Below the pieces are notes generated by a model. It had not been told where the DNA came from. It saw only the letters and a program-made list of their open reading frames with translations, and made no database searches. Shown piece by piece: positions 1,082-24,607 of a stretch of 24,967 nt of DNA. Both the position numbers and the translations under genes were made by a program. How positions within the stretch are numbered: position 1 is the stretch's first letter; every line of letters begins with the position of its first letter. Source of the DNA: a virus (Duplodnaviria > Caudoviricetes); the IMG/VR virus record IMGVR_UViG_3300045457_000062, positions 1 through 24,967 of that record, one strand, 5' to 3'.

Positions 1082-1251
1082 GCTACCTCTTTAAAATATG
1101 TTTGTAGTTCTTCACTCATTTCTTTTAGAACATGGCCACCTACACCTACACGAATGACATTACATAGTTCAATCACGTTGTCAGGTGTAATCTTGTCGTC
1201 AGGCTTGAACTCATATAGTTTGCCTGGTGAATATTTGTTGTCTTCTGTCAT
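1078..1251 (-). CDS. Hypothetical protein, 57 aa (MTEDNKYSPG...)
   Basis: ATG overlaps the gp43 stop (ATGA), and its own stop overlaps the methyltransferase start. Start re-assigned from the ORF track. Confidence 0.7.
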   Translation of the reverse strand: MTEDNKYSPGKLYEFKPDDKITPDNVIELCNVIRVGVGGHVLKEMSEELQTYFKEVA

Positions 1252-3800
1252 TTGAAAAAGTCCTCTAAACTGGCAGTTCTCTCTGCCTTCCAACCGATTG
1301 CTTCCAGAATGATCTTTAGTGGTTCTAGAAACGACTTCTCAAATTGGGTTGAGTAGTCGATATACTTGTGTAAGTCAAACTCTTCCGGTATACCTCCTTG
1401 CGGAAAAGCAATCACATTAGATTGCACAGTGTTGGGTTCTTTAAGAAAGATAAACTTGATCTTCTCGCCATTGTTGATTAGTGGATACTTATCAGTAAGG
1501 CTATGAACCCGTAGAAAGTTATTATATACAAGAGAACCACGAACATGGATAGGGCAACCTGATGCATAAATGCTTCTCTTGTCTGCATACTTAACCATTC
1601 CATTAACACCACGAGGAAAAGAAATGTCCGAAAGAGGAAGAGTTTCAAACTCTCCACGAAACTGCTGAATGAACTCCTGAACTGCTGATTCATCTGCACC
1701 AAATATAACATCAATCGCCTCTCTTAGTTTGTCTCTACATGCTGTAGGTGTGGAACTCTTGATCATTTCAAGGCCCATAACTTTCTTCTTAGGATGTGCG
1801 TATTGCACACCTTCAGAGTTATGGACATTTAGAATATAACGCTTCTTGGCAGTCCAGATTGCTTTGTCTGCCAAGACTTCACGCTTCATGACAATCTTTT
1901 GCTGATAAACGTTAGTATATTCACCAAGACTTGCACAAGCCTTATCAATAACACGTTGTATTCCAGTTTCACACGCTCTATCCAAGAAAGTGATTGTACC
2001 GGCTGTATCGATAGTTCTATCATCCGACGAACAGGCTTGTCGGACCAAATCAGCAAGTCGCAAGTATACCGAGTCAGTATCGACCGCAATGACATAATCT
2101 TTCTCCGTCTTTAGTATTTTGTTTAGATATTTGTTGATGCTGTTTTCAATCCAGCGGATGCTAAGTTGTCCAGTAGTCGTAACGGCAATAGCATTACGAA
2201 GATCAAAGAAACGAAAATACTTTGAACCCATTGCACCATAGAGTGAGTTGAGTGATACTTTCTTAGAGAGTTGCAGGTTGTTATATCTTGCAATCTTGTT
2301 TTTAAGTTCTTTCTTCTTATCAGGATCAGTCTCTATCTCATATGCTGCCTGTGCTTCAAGCATCGCCTTCTTATACACCTTACGATCAGCAAACATCTTC
2401 TCAACCATTTCAGGCATGAAGCCTTGCTTATCACGGCGATAGAACTGACCGTTTGCTGTCAAACAAACATTCTCGTCCTTTAGAAAGGATGTATCAATAG
2501 ACTGATTGAGTAGTTTATCAACACTGACACCAGAGGCAATAACAGAACGCATAGCATCGCTATAAGAATCAAATTCAACAATCGTCTCAGGAGAGATATT
2601 GGACCCCATAATAACAGACGGATACTCTGAGTTAACGTCAAAACTAGCCACCCAATCATGGAAACCAATAATAGGGTCTTTAACATATGCGCCAACATAG
2701 GCAGCCTCCTTCTCGTGTTTCTCAATAGGAGGGACAACTATGTTCTTTGATTTCAAATGATGAAAACAAATAACGTCCCACATACGGACCTGTGCGAACA
2801 CGTCCTCGTAGTTACACTTGTTATCATAAGATAAAGTTAGTGCTAGTTCAATAAACTTACCCTTGTCATCAATACGATCAACAAGATCAACGTCTTTGAT
2901 GTTATAGTCGATGAACTTTTGATAATCTTCCTTGTATAAGTTATGCAAGGTACCAAATTCTTCATATGATATTTTATGCTCACCAAGTTCAACATGAGCA
3001 ATATTGTCTAGTCGGTATGACTCTTGTGAGTATCCGCCAGATGCATATTTCTTATATAGGGTAATCATATCAAGCGTGGAGATACCAAGGATAGAATACC
3101 CCTGACCACGACGACCCATACCCAGGTCTAATGTTTTGGAGTTGATAACATTCCAAGGAGAAAGTTTCTTTGCTTCATTCTCACTCATAATCTTTGTGAT
3201 ACGATTTACAAGATATGGTATATCAAATTGCTCTACGTTCCATCCTGTAATGATATCTGGATACTCTGACTGCCACCAACCAAGAAACTTACGAATAAGT
3301 TCAAACTCGTCAGCACATCGGTAATATACAACATCTTCACGTTTGTTGTTATAGTCACCTGTTCCAAATGTGACAAAGCGACCGTCCATCTTCACTGTGA
3401 TGGCGGTTAAAGGTTCAGATGCCGTTTCAGGTTCAGGAAATCCATTCTCTGAGCCAACTTCAATATCAATGTTGGCTACTTTGATATGTGAGATATCCCA
3501 ATCAACGGTGCCTGGAAACTCGTCGGCAATAAAGCAATATTGATACCGTTGATTGCCGTAAATTTTAAAGTTCTCAATGCCTTCATACTGCTTAACAAAA
3601 TCACGACAATCACGAATGCTGCCAGGCTTTACAGACCCAACATACTCACCATGAATTGTCGTGTATTTTGTTGGCTTGTCGGAAGGCACGAACAAGGTGG
3701 GATTGTAATCCACCTTGAGTCGCACACGCTTTCCATTCTCAACACCACGATATAGGATTTTACCACCCCATATCTCAACATTTGTATAAAATTTATTCAT
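1248..3800 (-). CDS. 43: Family B DNA polymerase, T4 gp43-like
   Basis: ExoI DIE, ExoII WNVEQFDIPY, ExoIII YNIKDV. Polymerase motif A SFDVNSEYPS, motif B KVSLNSLYG, motif C DTDS, KKRY. C-terminal clamp-binding SLEDFF. Confidence 0.98.
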   Translation of the reverse strand: MNKFYTNVEIWGGKILYRGVENGKRVRLKVDYNPTLFVPSDKPTKYTTIHGEYVGSVKPGSIRDCRDFVKQYEGIENFKIYGNQRYQYCFIADEFPGTVDWDISHIKVANIDIEVGSENGFPEPETASEPLTAITVKMDGRFVTFGTGDYNNKREDVVYYRCADEFELIRKFLGWWQSEYPDIITGWNVEQFDIPYLVNRITKIMSENEAKKLSPWNVINSKTLDLGMGRRGQGYSILGISTLDMITLYKKYASGGYSQESYRLDNIAHVELGEHKISYEEFGTLHNLYKEDYQKFIDYNIKDVDLVDRIDDKGKFIELALTLSYDNKCNYEDVFAQVRMWDVICFHHLKSKNIVVPPIEKHEKEAAYVGAYVKDPIIGFHDWVASFDVNSEYPSVIMGSNISPETIVEFDSYSDAMRSVIASGVSVDKLLNQSIDTSFLKDENVCLTANGQFYRRDKQGFMPEMVEKMFADRKVYKKAMLEAQAAYEIETDPDKKKELKNKIARYNNLQLSKKVSLNSLYGAMGSKYFRFFDLRNAIAVTTTGQLSIRWIENSINKYLNKILKTEKDYVIAVDTDSVYLRLADLVRQACSSDDRTIDTAGTITFLDRACETGIQRVIDKACASLGEYTNVYQQKIVMKREVLADKAIWTAKKRYILNVHNSEGVQYAHPKKKVMGLEMIKSSTPTACRDKLREAIDVIFGADESAVQEFIQQFRGEFETLPLSDISFPRGVNGMVKYADKRSIYASGCPIHVRGSLVYNNFLRVHSLTDKYPLINNGEKIKFIFLKEPNTVQSNVIAFPQGGIPEEFDLHKYIDYSTQFEKSFLEPLKIILEAIGWKAERTASLEDFFK

Positions 3801-5410: not shown

Positions 5411-5794
5411 ATGCCAACATTTATTTTATCTCTCATTACCTCAGGTTCCATAAAGTGGCTTTCCATTCTTGGAATTGTAGCAGGGCTGGCAGGTGGATTA
5501 TACATGAAACACCGTGAGATTGTCAATAACGAAAAGCAAATAGCACTCCAGCAATACAACATCAAACAGTTGGAACAGACTATAAAAGACCGAGATGCTT
5601 ATATAAAAGAAATAGAAAATGTCGCCAGAGCAAGGTCCGAAGCAATCAACAATCTTGCACAGAAGAATAGAGAACTGGAAAACAAATTAGATTCTGTTGT
5701 CACAGAGATTGATAAACATGTTGGTGCTGGACATGATAGAGAGTCGTCGCAAATACTTAAAGACACAATCAAGTCTTTGGAGCAAATGAAATGA
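5411..5794 (+). CDS. i-spanin (Rz / T4 PseT.3-like)
   Basis: N-terminal TM segment followed by a long coiled coil; GGAGG RBS; ATGA overlap with a downstream lipoprotein gene. Confidence 0.8.
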   Translation: MPTFILSLITSGSIKWLSILGIVAGLAGGLYMKHREIVNNEKQIALQQYNIKQLEQTIKDRDAYIKEIENVARARSEAINNLAQKNRELENKLDSVVTEIDKHVGAGHDRESSQILKDTIKSLEQMK

Positions 5795-6072
5795 AAAAGA
5801 TTATTCTATTGTTAGCCGTAGTCTTACTGGCTTCTTGTAATGACCAGACTCAGGTGGTGACAACTTATCGTCATATGGTTGTTCATCCTGACGAGGCAAT
5901 GTATTATTGTCCTGTTGTGAAGGAGTTTCCAAACTGGAAGACTCTGACGGATAGTCAGGTGGCGAAGTTGGTTGTTCAGTTACATAAGAACAATTTGACA
6001 TGCAAAAGTTCCATTGAGTCTATTCGTAAGTTTCTAAATGAAGCAGACCAGATAGTGAAAAGGGCGGATTAA
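5791..6072 (+). CDS. o-spanin lipoprotein (Rz1 / T4 PseT.2-like)
   Basis: Signal peptide with lipobox LLASC, two further Cys and a Pro-containing region; coupled to the i-spanin. Confidence 0.8.
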   Translation: MKKIILLLAVVLLASCNDQTQVVTTYRHMVVHPDEAMYYCPVVKEFPNWKTLTDSQVAKLVVQLHKNNLTCKSSIESIRKFLNEADQIVKRAD

Positions 6073-16318: not shown

Positions 16319-17334
16319 TACTCACCCTTTTCAAGCAGACACATATCTTCAACAAGTGCCTTAAAATCATACTTTGGAGTCCAATCTAATGTGAATCGTG
16401 CTTTGGTAGGATCACCTAGCAGTAATTGAACCTCTGCCGGACGATAAAAATATGGATTGATATTGATAACAATCTTATCAGTCTTTCTATCAATACCAAC
16501 TTCATTCTCTGCCTTACCACGCCATTCAATATCCATATCAAAATATTTGGCAGCAACCTCAATAAACTCTCTGACAGTATGTAGTTTGCCTGTAGCAACC
16601 ACATAATCATCAGGAGTATGGTGCTGCAACATCTTATGCATCACCTCAACATAATCTTTAGCATGGCCCCAATCTCTTTGGGCATCAATATTACCCATAG
16701 TAACAAATTCTTGCTTACCGAGTGCTACTCGTTTCAGACCATGAATGACCTTGCGAGTAACAAAGTTTGTACCACGACGAGGGCTTTCGTGATTGAATAG
16801 AATGCCATTACAGTTAAACATACCATATGACTCACGATAGTTTACCGACATCCAATGTGCGGCCAATTTAGCACAACCATATGGCGAACGGGGATAGAAT
16901 GGTGTTGTTTCTCTCTGTGGAGTTTCTTGAACGAGTCCAAACATTTCAGATGTTGATGCCTGATAAAACTTTGGATTGTGTCCAGCAACTTTTAGTTTGC
17001 GAAGGCCTTCTAGAATACCTGTGGTGCCAACAGCAATACATTGCATCGTGTATTCAGGAATATCAAACGAAACTCTAACATCTGATTGTGCTGCGATGTT
17101 ATATGTTTCGTCAGGCTTAATTTCTAGAATGTTATCTATAACAGCCGATGGTGATGTTAGATCACAATAGATAAGATTTAGATTTTTATGATTTCTTATG
17201 GATTCTATATTAGAATAATTGGGTGTGGATGATCTACGGACAAAACCGTAGACCTCATATCCTTTATCTAATAGAAGTTCAGCAAGATATGATCCGTCTT
17301 GCCCGGTGATTCCAGTAACAATCGCTTTCTTCAT
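16318..17334 (-). CDS. gmd: GDP-mannose 4,6-dehydratase
   Basis: TGITGQDGSYLAELLL, QASTSEMFG, PFYPRSPYGCAK, LFNHESPRRG, RDWGHAKDYV. GAGG RBS before ATG 17334. Confidence 0.96.
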   Translation of the reverse strand: MKKAIVTGITGQDGSYLAELLLDKGYEVYGFVRRSSTPNYSNIESIRNHKNLNLIYCDLTSPSAVIDNILEIKPDETYNIAAQSDVRVSFDIPEYTMQCIAVGTTGILEGLRKLKVAGHNPKFYQASTSEMFGLVQETPQRETTPFYPRSPYGCAKLAAHWMSVNYRESYGMFNCNGILFNHESPRRGTNFVTRKVIHGLKRVALGKQEFVTMGNIDAQRDWGHAKDYVEVMHKMLQHHTPDDYVVATGKLHTVREFIEVAAKYFDMDIEWRGKAENEVGIDRKTDKIVININPYFYRPAEVQLLLGDPTKARFTLDWTPKYDFKALVEDMCLLEKGE

Positions 17335-17335
17335 A

Positions 17336-18226
17336 TTATCCCTCATAAACAAACATATGCCACCAAAGATAAAACTGATGTAAATCAGTGTAACAGTTAG
17401 GTCTGTTATCAACAAATGGAGGCTGATATAACATATCTAGGTATTCGTTTTTACCTTCTGGTGAGTCAAGATGCTTGGTATAATCAATGACTCTATCAAA
17501 AGTGCCAAAGTCATGACTATTGATAAATGCTTTCTTGTTAAAGTCTCGGTGAACTGTATTGTTTGCGCCCCAATAGATAGGTACAGTATTAGCCTGAAAC
17601 GCATTCAAAATCTTTTCGGTCACATATCCAGGATAAGTTTGATTTTCAAATGCTATATTGAATTTATACTTATTCAAGAAATTAATCTTATGTTCTAGTT
17701 TATCTCTAGGCAAAATGAAACCTGTATTGTTCAGATGTGGCCCTGCCGAATCAACCTGCTTGTATGCACAAATCATAGGAAAGAAAGTGTTACGAACAGA
17801 AGATTTAGGATTGGACTGAACAAAAGAACAAAACTTTCTGTTCCAATTTTTCTCAGGATCACCCAAGTCACGATTACACAACTGTAAGTAATCATCCGTC
17901 CAATGCTCAAAATGAACAGCACTCCACATATCTAAAACATATAGTGGTAATCGGTAATGTCTGGGACTATTCTCTGGATCAAATGTTATGGCATGATTGT
18001 ATGTTAGATAGTCTGGACGAACATTTTCTCCTGTATAAAAGATTTTCTTAGCACGTCCATTGAACTTGTTATGTGCTTTACCAAAGTTACTATCACCAAA
18101 GATAACATACTTTGGGTTTTGATTATCAATAGTAACATCGTAGTATTCACTTAGAACCGTTGTAAAAAACAGTTCTGCGGTCGCAAAGGTATCAGAGAAA
18201 CCGAGGAGAAGAGGCGGCTTACTCAT
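17336..18226 (-). CDS. GT10 alpha-1,3/4-fucosyltransferase-like protein
   Basis: IFYTGEN.RPD, KFCSFVQSNP, and the alpha-1,3-FucT motif YKFNIAFEN..YPGYVTEKI..AF...TVPIYWG as in Helicobacter FutA. Confidence 0.9.
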   Translation of the reverse strand: MSKPPLLLGFSDTFATAELFFTTVLSEYYDVTIDNQNPKYVIFGDSNFGKAHNKFNGRAKKIFYTGENVRPDYLTYNHAITFDPENSPRHYRLPLYVLDMWSAVHFEHWTDDYLQLCNRDLGDPEKNWNRKFCSFVQSNPKSSVRNTFFPMICAYKQVDSAGPHLNNTGFILPRDKLEHKINFLNKYKFNIAFENQTYPGYVTEKILNAFQANTVPIYWGANNTVHRDFNKKAFINSHDFGTFDRVIDYTKHLDSPEGKNEYLDMLYQPPFVDNRPNCYTDLHQFYLWWHMFVYEG

Positions 18227-18843
18227 TACTTATACCAAAAAAATGAACTGTTAGTTGTTAGATTGATTGGTGCGGTAATCTTATTCTTTTCTCTGAAATC
18301 GTCTACGGCACGATGAACAGATTCCAATGCAGAGTAATCATGGCCGCAAAATATACCACCCTTCTTTAGTAAAGGATAGTATGCTTCACAATCTGCTAAT
18401 GTTGCTTCATATGAATGATCGCCATCAACAAAGATAAAGTCAAATGGTGTATCATCTTGTGAATTTAGAATTGTCTTGATCTTAGAGGCTGCATCTAATG
18501 ATGTTTCACGGATCATTTGAACACGTTCACCGAACGACTTTAGGTTCTCTTCGGCAATCATTAGAAACTTATCTATGACCTCTTGATTAAGTTCACCAGC
18601 CCAGTCTTCATATGCTTTATATGGATCGATTGTGTAAAGTTTTAGAACATTATCACAACGACTAAGAATATCATATGTGCTTTCCGCACGACAAGTTCCA
18701 ATTTCAAGTCCCACAAGATTGTCACCTTGTCTCTTTATGTAAGGAACAAGACCTTTAGTAGAAGTCCATTCAATAGGCCATTTACTAGCACTCTTAAGTT
18801 CGTCTACCGTCATAAAATCTGTTTCAGTCAATTCAATTGCCAT
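18226..18843 (-). CDS. Class I SAM-dependent O-methyltransferase (Methyltransf_24-like)
   Basis: GLEIGT, IDPY, FDFIFVDGDHSYE, LLKKGGIFCGHDY. Confidence 0.88.
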   Translation of the reverse strand: MAIELTETDFMTVDELKSASKWPIEWTSTKGLVPYIKRQGDNLVGLEIGTCRAESTYDILSRCDNVLKLYTIDPYKAYEDWAGELNQEVIDKFLMIAEENLKSFGERVQMIRETSLDAASKIKTILNSQDDTPFDFIFVDGDHSYEATLADCEAYYPLLKKGGIFCGHDYSALESVHRAVDDFREKNKITAPINLTTNSSFFWYK

Positions 18844-18844
18844 A

Positions 18845-19753
18845 TTAGTCTCCATACACATTCTGTATCATTTTATTCCAATCAGGTACACGATCCCATT
18901 GATGCAAAACTGTTACCTTCTCACCATTTACATGAACACTATTATCTTTAATAGTATAGTTCAATTCTTCTAAAAAGTCAATCTTCATATTAGGATTGAT
19001 TACATATGCTTCGCCTATACCACCAGAGCCCGCCTCGATTGCAGGCATTGACGTGCCGGCATGTAGTACCCAACCATTAGAAGGCATCGTTAATAATGTG
19101 GAGAAATGATATGTTTCAAAATCAAGCATGATATTCATCGCAGCCTGATCCGGGCCGCCGCCACCTTCTATCCAAGGATTTAAGCCACGACATATTAGCC
19201 AAAGATTTAGACAGAAATCTTTTATAGTGTCTAACTGTCCGGCAATCACACCAGCACAAAAGATAGGATCATCTTTCTTACGATCAAGAAAGTATTCACC
19301 AAATGATTTAGCAAGGTTGTTACTTCCCCACGGTTCGTTACCATATGTCATGTTCTCTGATCCAACCAGAAGATTATAACCATTTAGAAAATATTCATCT
19401 AACCATTCTGTAGGATTACTTTGAAACACAACATCCCTAACGTCAGTAATAATAACACGATCTACCATTTCAGGATCGTTTAACATATTGAGAAAATGAT
19501 GTATATGCAGAAAACGGTCAACCATAATGTTGCTATTACCTTCATACACAAACCCATTTTTGTCATCACTAGGACCGACACCAATCAACATAAACTGTTT
19601 TTGTGTGAGAAGTTCAACTGTTTCTTTATTCATATTATATACGATAAGAGCCTTGTATCCATCAAAGCCCGACTTTTCAATAGAGTTGGCCCAATACTTA
19701 ATCTTATCCCAATCGTAATTATCTACGACGCCTATAATCACGTCTTTAGCCAT
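18845..19753 (-). CDS. Putative GT-A fold glycosyltransferase
   Basis: TDVRDVVFQSNP (DxxD), CAGVIAG, DQAAMN and HQWDR motifs, within the glycan cluster. Confidence 0.72.
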   Translation of the reverse strand: MAKDVIIGVVDNYDWDKIKYWANSIEKSGFDGYKALIVYNMNKETVELLTQKQFMLIGVGPSDDKNGFVYEGNSNIMVDRFLHIHHFLNMLNDPEMVDRVIITDVRDVVFQSNPTEWLDEYFLNGYNLLVGSENMTYGNEPWGSNNLAKSFGEYFLDRKKDDPIFCAGVIAGQLDTIKDFCLNLWLICRGLNPWIEGGGGPDQAAMNIMLDFETYHFSTLLTMPSNGWVLHAGTSMPAIEAGSGGIGEAYVINPNMKIDFLEELNYTIKDNSVHVNGEKVTVLHQWDRVPDWNKMIQNVYGD

Positions 19754-22885: not shown

Positions 22886-23299
22886 CTATTCGTCTTCGTT
22901 GTGACGTTTCCTACCCAGTGAATACTTAGCGACCAAGTTCCACTCTGGCTTTTCCATATATGATATGATCTTGATTCTGTTTAGTGGTGTTAGAGGTTCT
23001 TTACTCTTGTCAGGATCAACAAGAGTTACAAGTTCCCATTCTGCCAATAGATTGGCAATGGTATTTCTTCTACCACGATCCTCTTCTGAGAAGTCAGTAG
23101 ACTTACCATCTAACATGAACATTTCTTTGAAATGCACCAAATAATAACGACCTTGCTTATGTAGGATGTGACATGACTGATAGAGTGTTTTGTCTTTCTT
23201 AGACGCCACTCCAATACGAGTCAATGTCTCTTTCACTTTTAGAAAGGCCTGTGGATCAGGAAGCCTTACTTCCACGAAGTCTTCTAGGTTTGCTGTCAT
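22886..23299 (-). CDS. regA: RegA translational repressor
   Basis: FLKVKETLTRIGVAS, LYQSCHILHKQGRYYLVHFKEMF.LDG, RRNTIA.LL.EW, W.LV.KY.LG. Confidence 0.97.
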   Translation of the reverse strand: MTANLEDFVEVRLPDPQAFLKVKETLTRIGVASKKDKTLYQSCHILHKQGRYYLVHFKEMFMLDGKSTDFSEEDRGRRNTIANLLAEWELVTLVDPDKSKEPLTPLNRIKIISYMEKPEWNLVAKYSLGRKRHNEDE

Positions 23300-23672
23300 T
23301 TATGCCACCTTTGTTTAGTTCTTTTTTTATTTTTTCTAACTGAGTAGCGTTTAGCAAAACCAATGCTTCTTTGGCCTTTTCATTGGAATAGTTATAATAC
23401 TCCTTTACGGCATCTAAGTTGTCAATGGTCTCACGCTTCTCCCATTTACGAAAAGGGCGTTTATAGCCTCTTATGCTATTTAGCAAAAAATGGTATTGAA
23501 GATTAGCAGGTAGATGTGGATACTTGTTCATCTCATTAGCCTGCATAACGCAATCGTAGTGAAACGAGATGGCACGATTCACTACGAAAGCATTATAGTC
23601 CTTTTCGTTCTCTAGAACATTCTTCTTGGTCTGTAGAATGGATGGTATGATATCTCTGAATAAGTCACTCAT
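23256..23672 (-). CDS. 62: Clamp loader small subunit gp62
   Basis: Y..FVVNRAISF..D....ANEMN, QY.FLLNSIR..KR, VKEYYNYSNEKA, KGG; lies between gp44 and regA. Confidence 0.93.
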   Translation of the reverse strand: MSDLFRDIIPSILQTKKNVLENEKDYNAFVVNRAISFHYDCVMQANEMNKYPHLPANLQYHFLLNSIRGYKRPFRKWEKRETIDNLDAVKEYYNYSNEKAKEALVLLNATQLEKIKKELNKGGINDSKPRRLRGSKAS

Positions 23673-24607
23673 TTTATATCACATTCCACCATGATTTCCG
23701 TCAGACATGCCACAAGATTTAGTTCTTGGTCAGCCACGAATGCTGCCTGATACTGATACTTAGCCAGTGTCACCACGGCAGCAGGAATGGACTCTGGCTT
23801 TAGATACTCATTCAGTCCATCATACACAGTGCGATAAATGAGAGACGGATCAATGTCAGAGTTTAGAACGATCCACTTACGCATGGCACCAAAGTCTTTA
23901 TCTTTTAGTGCTTTGATTAGTTCAGATAAAGATTTAATACCATCAAGTTGACTAACAACACCAGCGTCAATGTTTCCAGACACAGCATGGCGTTGGAGTT
24001 CATTAAGAAGACGCCGATAGTCTGGGAAATACTTTTCAACAATCTTGATGAGAACCTGCTTGTCATATTCAACACCTTCTATCTTTAGAATCTCATTAAC
24101 TCTCTTGAACATCTTAGAAGCCATAAGAGGCTTTTCACTAGACTTCAAGGTAAAGTCAACAACGGCACATCTAGAATGAATAGCGTCCTTGATCTTTGCC
24201 TTGAAGTTACATGTGAAGATGAAAGAACAGTTTTCAGCAAACTTTTCAATCACACCTCTAAGAGCATCTTGCGTATCTGGTGTAAGACCGTCGGCTTCGT
24301 CTAGAATGATAACCTTACGACCACCAGTAAGCGATACGGTTGACGCATAACCCACAACCTTTGTTCTTAGAACATCAATGCCTCTTTCTTCTGAAGAGTT
24401 GATGAAAAGATAGTTACAACCGATTTCATCACACATAGCCATGGCTGCGGTAGTTTTACCACATCCAGCAGGACCAGAAAGAAGGAGATTTGGAATCTCC
24501 CTCTTGGTCACATATTCCTGAAACGCTTTCTTGATACGCTCAGGAAGAACGCAGTCCTCAATCTTGTGAGGACGATACTTTTCTACCCAAAGAAAGTCAT
24601 TGCTCAT
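23669..24607 (-). CDS. 44: Clamp loader AAA+ subunit gp44
   Basis: LWVEKYRP, Walker A GPAGCGKTT, Walker B IILDEAD, SRC motif, FPDYRR.LNELQ. Confidence 0.97.
   Translation of the reverse strand: MSNDFLWVEKYRPHKIEDCVLPERIKKAFQEYVTKREIPNLLLSGPAGCGKTTAAMAMCDEIGCNYLFINSSEERGIDVLRTKVVGYASTVSLTGGRKVIILDEADGLTPDTQDALRGVIEKFAENCSFIFTCNFKAKIKDAIHSRCAVVDFTLKSSEKPLMASKMFKRVNEILKIEGVEYDKQVLIKIVEKYFPDYRRLLNELQRHAVSGNIDAGVVSQLDGIKSLSELIKALKDKDFGAMRKWIVLNSDIDPSLIYRTVYDGLNEYLKPESIPAAVVTLAKYQYQAAFVADQELNLVACLTEIMVECDIK

Follow-up and report, generated by a model that had tools for sequence, protein, structure and literature searches.

The gp43 locus of the window

The window, that is the whole stretch of DNA analysed here (24,967 nucleotides), comes from a freshwater T4-like phage and covers 25 kb of its genome. 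Its minus strand carries, in order, gp43, an acyl-CoA dehydrogenase gene, a nucleotide-sugar cluster, and the genes for HSP20, dUTPase, regA and the clamp loader (Table 1). The gp43 protein shares about 33% identity with RB69 gp43 and has what defines a T4-like gp43: the PolB exonuclease and polymerase domains with an RB69-like fold, the catalytic Asp of motifs A and C, the K..N..YG of motif B, the steric-gate Tyr and the ExoI-III acids. Motif A of family B polymerases contains a textbook fidelity-controlling Leu before the steric gate; this usual, non-defining residue is absent from the window gp43 and Glu is found there. The predicted model (pLDDT 87.8) superimposes on RB69 gp43 with a Foldseek TM of 0.85-0.90, and E392 opens the helix 392-400 in this RB69 fold, where the model confidence falls to 79 across residues 391-400. 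The C-terminal LEDFF tail matches the clamp-binding tail of RB69 gp43.

The window protein thus resembles the T4 and RB69 gp43 in its fold and in its catalytic, steric-gate, proofreading and C-terminal motifs, with the clamp loader and regA encoded nearby, but differs from RB69 in having Glu for L415, Val for L412, Thr for F589, Ser for A593 and Ile for M681. Judged from its sequence, it is likely the replicative polymerase of a freshwater T4-like phage clade. Two other features of the window were observed. An N6/N4 DNA methyltransferase gene (119-1081) follows gp43, where the related genome G004 has a tryptophan-halogenase-like gene. Opposite to the general gene direction, two ORFs that overlap on the plus strand at 5411-6072 resemble a spanin pair, with a membrane anchor followed by a lipoprotein-type signal, and are kept across the clade.

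Table 1 Features of the gp43 region and of the replication genes in the window. Positions are those of the window; residue numbers are those of the window gp43 unless RB69 is named.
Feature	Position	Strand	Basis or remark
gp43, family B DNA polymerase, 850 aa, intact	1248..3800	minus	Pfam PF00136 and PF03104; RB69 gp43 E 1e-139
Proofreading motifs ExoI (D112, E114), ExoII (N188, D193), ExoIII (Y299, D303), intact	2892..3467	minus
Motif A, FDVNSEYPS (387-395): D388 catalytic, V389 (RB69 L412), E392 (L415), steric gate Y393 (Y416)	2616..2642	minus
V389 (RB69 L412), pocket neighbour	2634..2636	minus	Val in 97/97 Glu sequences, Leu in 24/24 close Leu sisters
Codon 392, GAG (Glu)	2625..2627	minus	ORF translation and contigs
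Motif B, KVSLNSLYG (514-522), intact	2235..2261	minus	RB69 alignment
T543-G544-Q545-L546-S547 (RB69 F589-G590-Q591-M592-A593), cavity wall	2160..2174	minus	RB69 alignment
Motif C, DTDS (574-577), intact	2070..2081	minus	Sequence
I636-V637-M638 (RB69 M681-F682-M683), cavity floor	1887..1895	minus	RB69 alignment
C-terminal LEDFF tail, matches RB69 clamp-binding tail	1254..1268	minus	RB69 alignment
Clamp loader gp44/gp62 and regA	22886-24607		Pfam

Codon 392 encodes a conserved glutamate

The initial annotation had read Glu in motif A at codon 392, giving SEYP for SLYP, and this was confirmed by reading of the minus strand and by the RB69 gp43 alignment, in which E392 pairs with L415 and Y393 with the steric gate Y416. 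The codon was compared with assembled contigs from 4 of the 24 listed runs, belonging to four studies, one of the runs being possibly the window's own source. Pieces of runs X2 (2574-2702) and X7 (2300-2781) span the codon with identical letters, the piece of run X5 has four differences, of which the three listed close to the motif (2619, 2631, 2640) all fall on third codon positions, and the 40 contig difference rows compared, out of 81, list none at 2625-2627. Glu is present in 96 of the best 120 gp43 homologues (61-98% identity), the other 24 having Leu. The contigs and the homologues agree with the earlier view that Glu392 is not a read error but a natural variant, which is conserved across the clade. 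In 62 Glu genes the codon is GAG 58 times and GAA 4 times, and it is the amino acid, not the codon, that is conserved, since both occur. DNA-level constraint on GAG was rejected, its frequency being matched at other invariant Glu sites (43/46 at 846 and 54/61 at 467).

The Glu polymerases form a clade with a likely Methylocystis-like host

The Glu proteins form a single clade among Leu relatives (FastTree, 182 rows, support 1.0), recovered with an SH-aLRT of 100 after removal of motif A. D388, Y393, motifs B and C and ExoI-III are invariant in this clade down to 61% identity, the ExoI-III residues across 60 aligned Glu sequences. Five near-complete Glu genomes (G001-G005) measure 164-174 kb and contain one gp43 match each.

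A pmoC gene was found in 3 of these 5 genomes and in 2 of 4 partial Glu records (G001, G003, G004, G021 and G023, thus 5/9 Glu relatives) and is missing from the 85%-complete Leu sister G020; the window, whose record is 25 kb only, has none at the syntenic site. The PDB entries nearest to the G004 PmoC are 4phz and 3rfr, presumably both from Methylocystis. Because pmoC occurs in 3/5 near-complete genomes, the host of the clade is likely Methylocystis-like, the window phage's own host being deduced from its relatives. By their description in the accessible text of Chen et al. 2020 (PMC7674155), the pmoC-phages predicted to infect Methylocystis are alike, being myophages from freshwater that measure 160-175 kb and carry pmoC, HSP20 and acyl-CoA dehydrogenase genes; in that text the polymerase serves just as a tree marker and motif A goes unmentioned. 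In G004, pmoC (L083:1931-2701) sits between the acyl-CoA dehydrogenase gene and gp43.

Thirty-one gene families are present in at least 4 of the 5 Glu genomes and in zero Leu records, the named ones being FtsH, acyl-CoA dehydrogenase and DNA ligase. A complete FtsH protease gene lies between gp47 and gp46 (L081:6909-8696, G004), its family being found in 5/5 Glu genomes and not in any partial Leu sister. The ATP-dependent DNA ligase family (376 aa; L086:47-1174, G004) occurs in 4/5 clade genomes and in the unrelated Glu genomes G007 and G009; it was not found in six partial Leu sisters, which may be chance or incompleteness.

Glu before the steric gate arose repeatedly

We surveyed the best 150 of roughly 3,100 strong gp43 clusters (clustered at 50% identity), in which the position of residue 392 was Leu in 133, Met in 10, Glu in 4, Ser in 2 and Asp in 1. 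Met is therefore the commonest natural alternative, and the sister of one Glu protein has Met. Viral contigs scanned for the motif yielded 93 matches, 51 of them within PolB-like frames, in seven motif contexts; the scan undercounts, because the pattern requires TCN serine codons. In a tree of 36 chosen rows built without the motif A columns, the starred branches force seven changes, and a single Glu clade, as expected from one origin spread by whole-gene transfer, was rejected (p-AU 1e-8). As reconstructed from these sequences, T4-like gp43 underwent the Leu/Glu swap on at least seven occasions. In two Glu lineages motif A resembles that of their own Leu or Met sister, which makes short-patch transfer unlikely.

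SEYP was also found in three betaentomopoxviruses (Amsacta, Choristoneura and Mythimna), and five poxvirus-like relatives have SLYP, so the poxvirus origins are separate. Among prokaryotic genome matches, 5 of 120 were acidobacterial PolBs with DFTSEYPS. SEYP rows occur in Table S2 of PMC7544198 in three groups, PolB_CDTDS, pPolB and one archaeal PolB; the main text of that paper, as far as accessible, mentions neither SLYP nor the steric gate. The betaentomopoxvirus and PolB_CDTDS polymerases are alike in their SEYP motif A but belong to distant families (28% identity or less). The question raised at the outset, whether SEYP is widespread in ordinary gp43 clades, has a divided answer: the motif is uncommon (4/150 clusters), yet recurrent and present in three entomopoxviruses.

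Gln occupies the position in one unrelated PolB-like group and Asp in protein-primed polymerases of 16-kb viruses, in both cases again after Val. Gln was seen in 0 of the best 150 gp43 clusters and the Gln scan gave no T4-like match, while a Gln codon is one base from two Leu codons; that Glu recurs yet Gln is unseen in T4-like gp43 may point to selection for an acidic residue. Leu is present in each of the 13 cultured phage or halovirus polymerases examined, and a search of 50,697 phage records with the 27-aa motif A gave no match above 73%, as judged by match percentage alone. In the open-access literature, with most matches judged from listings, we found no description of Glu at this motif A position. 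Saturation studies of yeast Pol delta and Pol alpha reportedly exist. The sequences are public, some of them within the PMC7544198 supplement.

Other observations concern the organisation of these genes. Protein-primed PolBs of about 837 aa (L580-L626, viral records of 15-16 kb) have FDVCSDYPS and the motif C YWDTDS. In G008 (255 kb) the PolB is in two ORFs 12 kb apart (L286:2375-4426 and 16897-18963), the first containing motif A (DFKSEYPS) and the second motifs B and C. Several records (L126, L150, G012:83917-86098) have gp43 genes broken after motif A, by a split gene, an intron or an inserted ORF.

The pocket around Glu392

In RB69 gp43, according to the accessible text of PMC3799440, L415 lies under the dNTP triphosphate in a cavity lined by L412, Y416, F589, G590, A593, M681 and M683. 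The initial annotation had placed this Leu in the lining of the nascent base-pair pocket, where it would tune fidelity; the second part holds, but the L415 side chain contacts neither dNTP nor primer-template DNA in that text (PMC3799440). In the same source, Met fills the cavity of L415M and base selectivity is kept, and in L415A/G an ordered water is bound to the carbonyls of G590 and T622 and fidelity is reduced.

Several of the corresponding positions differ between the Glu sequences and their Leu sisters. Position 543 is Thr in 97/97 Glu sequences and Ala or Ser in the Leu sisters; position 544 is Gly in 75/97 and Ser in 22/97 Glu sequences, with Ser in 0/24 Leu sisters (all Gly); position 547 is Ser or Thr in the Glu clade; and position 636 is Ile or Leu in 97/97 Glu sequences against Met in 24/24 Leu sisters. 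Since 33 columns, these pocket positions among them, are clade-diagnostic between Glu and Leu, this linkage is in itself little proof. Of 8 independent Glu lineages, 7 have Val or Ala at the L412 site, vs 39 of 143 Leu/Met clusters (Fisher p 0.001, kinship ignored). The coupling was not significant in independent pairs (sign test p 0.25, 7 pairs), because several sisters already carry Val or Ala; this fits, but does not show, that these residues in the sisters are a permissive background for Glu. Ser or Thr at the F589 position is also common among Leu enzymes (113/143), so no dedicated partner residue is shown, and no Lys or Arg partner was found among the pocket positions. F470 and V396 were rejected as partner columns, their post hoc p values (4e-4 and 6e-4 over 370 columns) failing correction.

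The PDB matches listed include L415A, G, M, K and F, and L415E is absent from them. The engineered RB69 L415M/A/G/F, T4 L412M/I and 9N Leu408Gln enzymes are changed at the same position, Met and Gln having the side-chain length of Glu; however, they are single laboratory changes in a Leu background, whereas the variant of the window is natural, fixed and acidic, with changed pocket neighbours.

Proposed role of Glu392 and fidelity

From the sequence comparisons, and by analogy with the RB69 mutants, we think it probable that the enzyme is an ordinary proofreading replicase in which Glu would fill a more polar pocket in the manner of Met, with compensation. Its fidelity is then likely near normal, with Glu392 filling the RB69 L415 pocket. 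Glu has the length of the Met that fills the cavity in L415M with base selectivity kept, and could do the same. Its carboxyl, probably protonated or water-bridged, would replace the ordered water held by the G590/T622 carbonyls in L415A/G, a placement that the nearby Thr/Ser hydroxyls and the space left by Val389 may aid, and the buried Glu would maintain the register of D388 and the motif C hairpin. The effect would be at most modest, a shift in processivity or in polymerase/exonuclease partitioning, with no selection of modified bases. This filler role is supported by the fixation of Glu in the clade, the invariant motifs, the single gp43 per genome, the changed pocket residues, the Val/Ala excess at the L412 site, Met as the commonest natural alternative, the SEYP of the entomopoxviruses, Gln and Asp after Val in other PolB groups, and the isolated-SNP spectrum and GC3 given below; the non-significant independent pairs, the recurrence of Glu without Gln, and the extra unique changes of the Glu clade and its lower fourfold-site ratio, also given below, count against it.

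A real if minor possibility is that Glu is a selected tuning of the enzyme, into a mild mutator, a polymerase more processive at low dNTP, or one laxer towards ribonucleotides or analogues. The site is a sensitive one in the accessible texts of several reports: RB69 L415A, G and F lower fidelity (PMC3799440; PMC2475618 for F and G), T4 L412M raises processivity and analogue use and L412I is an antimutator (PMC4120765), and the near-isosteric 9N Leu408Gln makes RNA and takes C5-modified dNTPs (PMC10604792). The seven or more changes on the tree and the rejection of a single clade also speak for tuning, as do the core proteins of the Glu clade, which have about 1.0-1.5 times more unique changes than those of the Leu sisters. 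With S-SM2 as outgroup, unique amino-acid changes were more numerous in Glu than in Leu sisters in 30 of 30 non-polymerase core-gene comparisons (e.g. 408 vs 324), but this rate difference is one phylogenetic contrast, confounded by a likely host change. In the other Glu/Leu sister pairs the branch lengths of the polymerase go either way (e.g. 0.47 vs 0.37, 0.48 vs 0.49 and 0.94 vs 1.05). The ratio of transitions to transversions at fourfold sites was 0.92 in 13 Glu pairs vs 1.26 in 7 Leu pairs, a comparison confounded by saturated, recombined tracts. Against tuning, the spectrum of isolated SNPs (59:8 transitions to transversions in 16 Glu pairs vs 25:1 in 3 Leu pairs, p 0.44) and GC3 (0.396 and 0.398 for Glu and Leu) are unshifted, at low power. 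A strong mutator is unlikely.

Doubtful, and advanced as speculation, is the broader proposal of repeated selection in viruses for a carboxylate beneath the dNTP triphosphate, which would act as a natural switch of fidelity or sugar selectivity and be the family B equivalent of the position-762 marker of PolA.

Modified bases and the glycan cluster

The idea of the initial annotation, that Glu could suit the polymerase to a modified nucleotide or to a template glycosylated by the nearby glycan cluster, is very improbable. The nucleotide-sugar epimerase/dehydratase family is present in 5/5 Leu sister records too, GT10 in 6/6 and GT2 in 5/6 partial Leu records, and ThyX, dUTPase, dNMP kinase and class II RNR are common to the Glu and Leu groups where covered. 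No dCMP/dUMP-modifying thymidylate-synthase homologue was found in the five near-complete Glu genomes (G001 without 5 kb). A tblastn search with the G007 and G009 proteins, added because the first family search had missed the divergent G009 copy, gave none in G001-G005 either, and a Pfam scan of 143/177 G004 ORFs and of 86/121 family representatives of the other four detected no enzyme of pre-replicative base modification, PurZ, queuosine-pathway and TET/JBP proteins included. In addition, the residue does not contact the base in the accessible text of PMC3799440, and both RB69 and Rhizobium phage RL38J1, the nearest named relative of G007/G009, modify cytosine according to the part available of PMC13326640, and both keep Leu. 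Some observations go the other way: the distant Glu lineage G007/G009 carries a second thymidylate-synthase homologue, with a beta-glucosyltransferase-like gene in G007 and NTP-transferase and SIS isomerase genes in G009; UDP-glucose dehydrogenase is present in 6/6 Glu vs 1/6 partial Leu records; and the clade has many genes without annotation, as well as sporadic 2OG-Fe(II) oxygenases and methyltransferases.

The second thymidylate-synthase homologue and the differing sugar genes of G007 (L276:10265-10927, L270:16800-17912) and G009 (L284:11030-14299) are, on their own account, gene sets for candidate new cytosine modifications. A link of Glu to RNR class was rejected, as the class is common to the Leu sisters and G009, a Glu genome, has class I RNR.

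Lastly, a sequencing or assembly error or a decayed polymerase has practically no chance of explaining Glu: an acid within a hydrophobic pocket seems harmful at first sight, and nothing else speaks for this explanation, which the matching contigs of other studies, the 96 of 120 homologues with Glu and the invariance of the remaining motifs rule out.

Significance of the variant

The variant is less special than it first looked. Mutator and analogue-tolerant family B polymerases have nevertheless classically been obtained through its position, which prior work treats as hydrophobic, and the at least seven natural acid-bearing gp43 lineages with close Leu or Met sisters make ready pairs for tests of pocket fidelity. 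The Glu polymerases are also possible starting points for enzyme engineering. If a carboxylate switch were true, they would be proofreading replicases with greater processivity or with an acceptance of ribonucleotides or analogues as in the engineered 9N Leu408Gln. If Glu is neutral, the lesson would be a smaller one, that motif A has more plasticity than its textbook consensus suggests.
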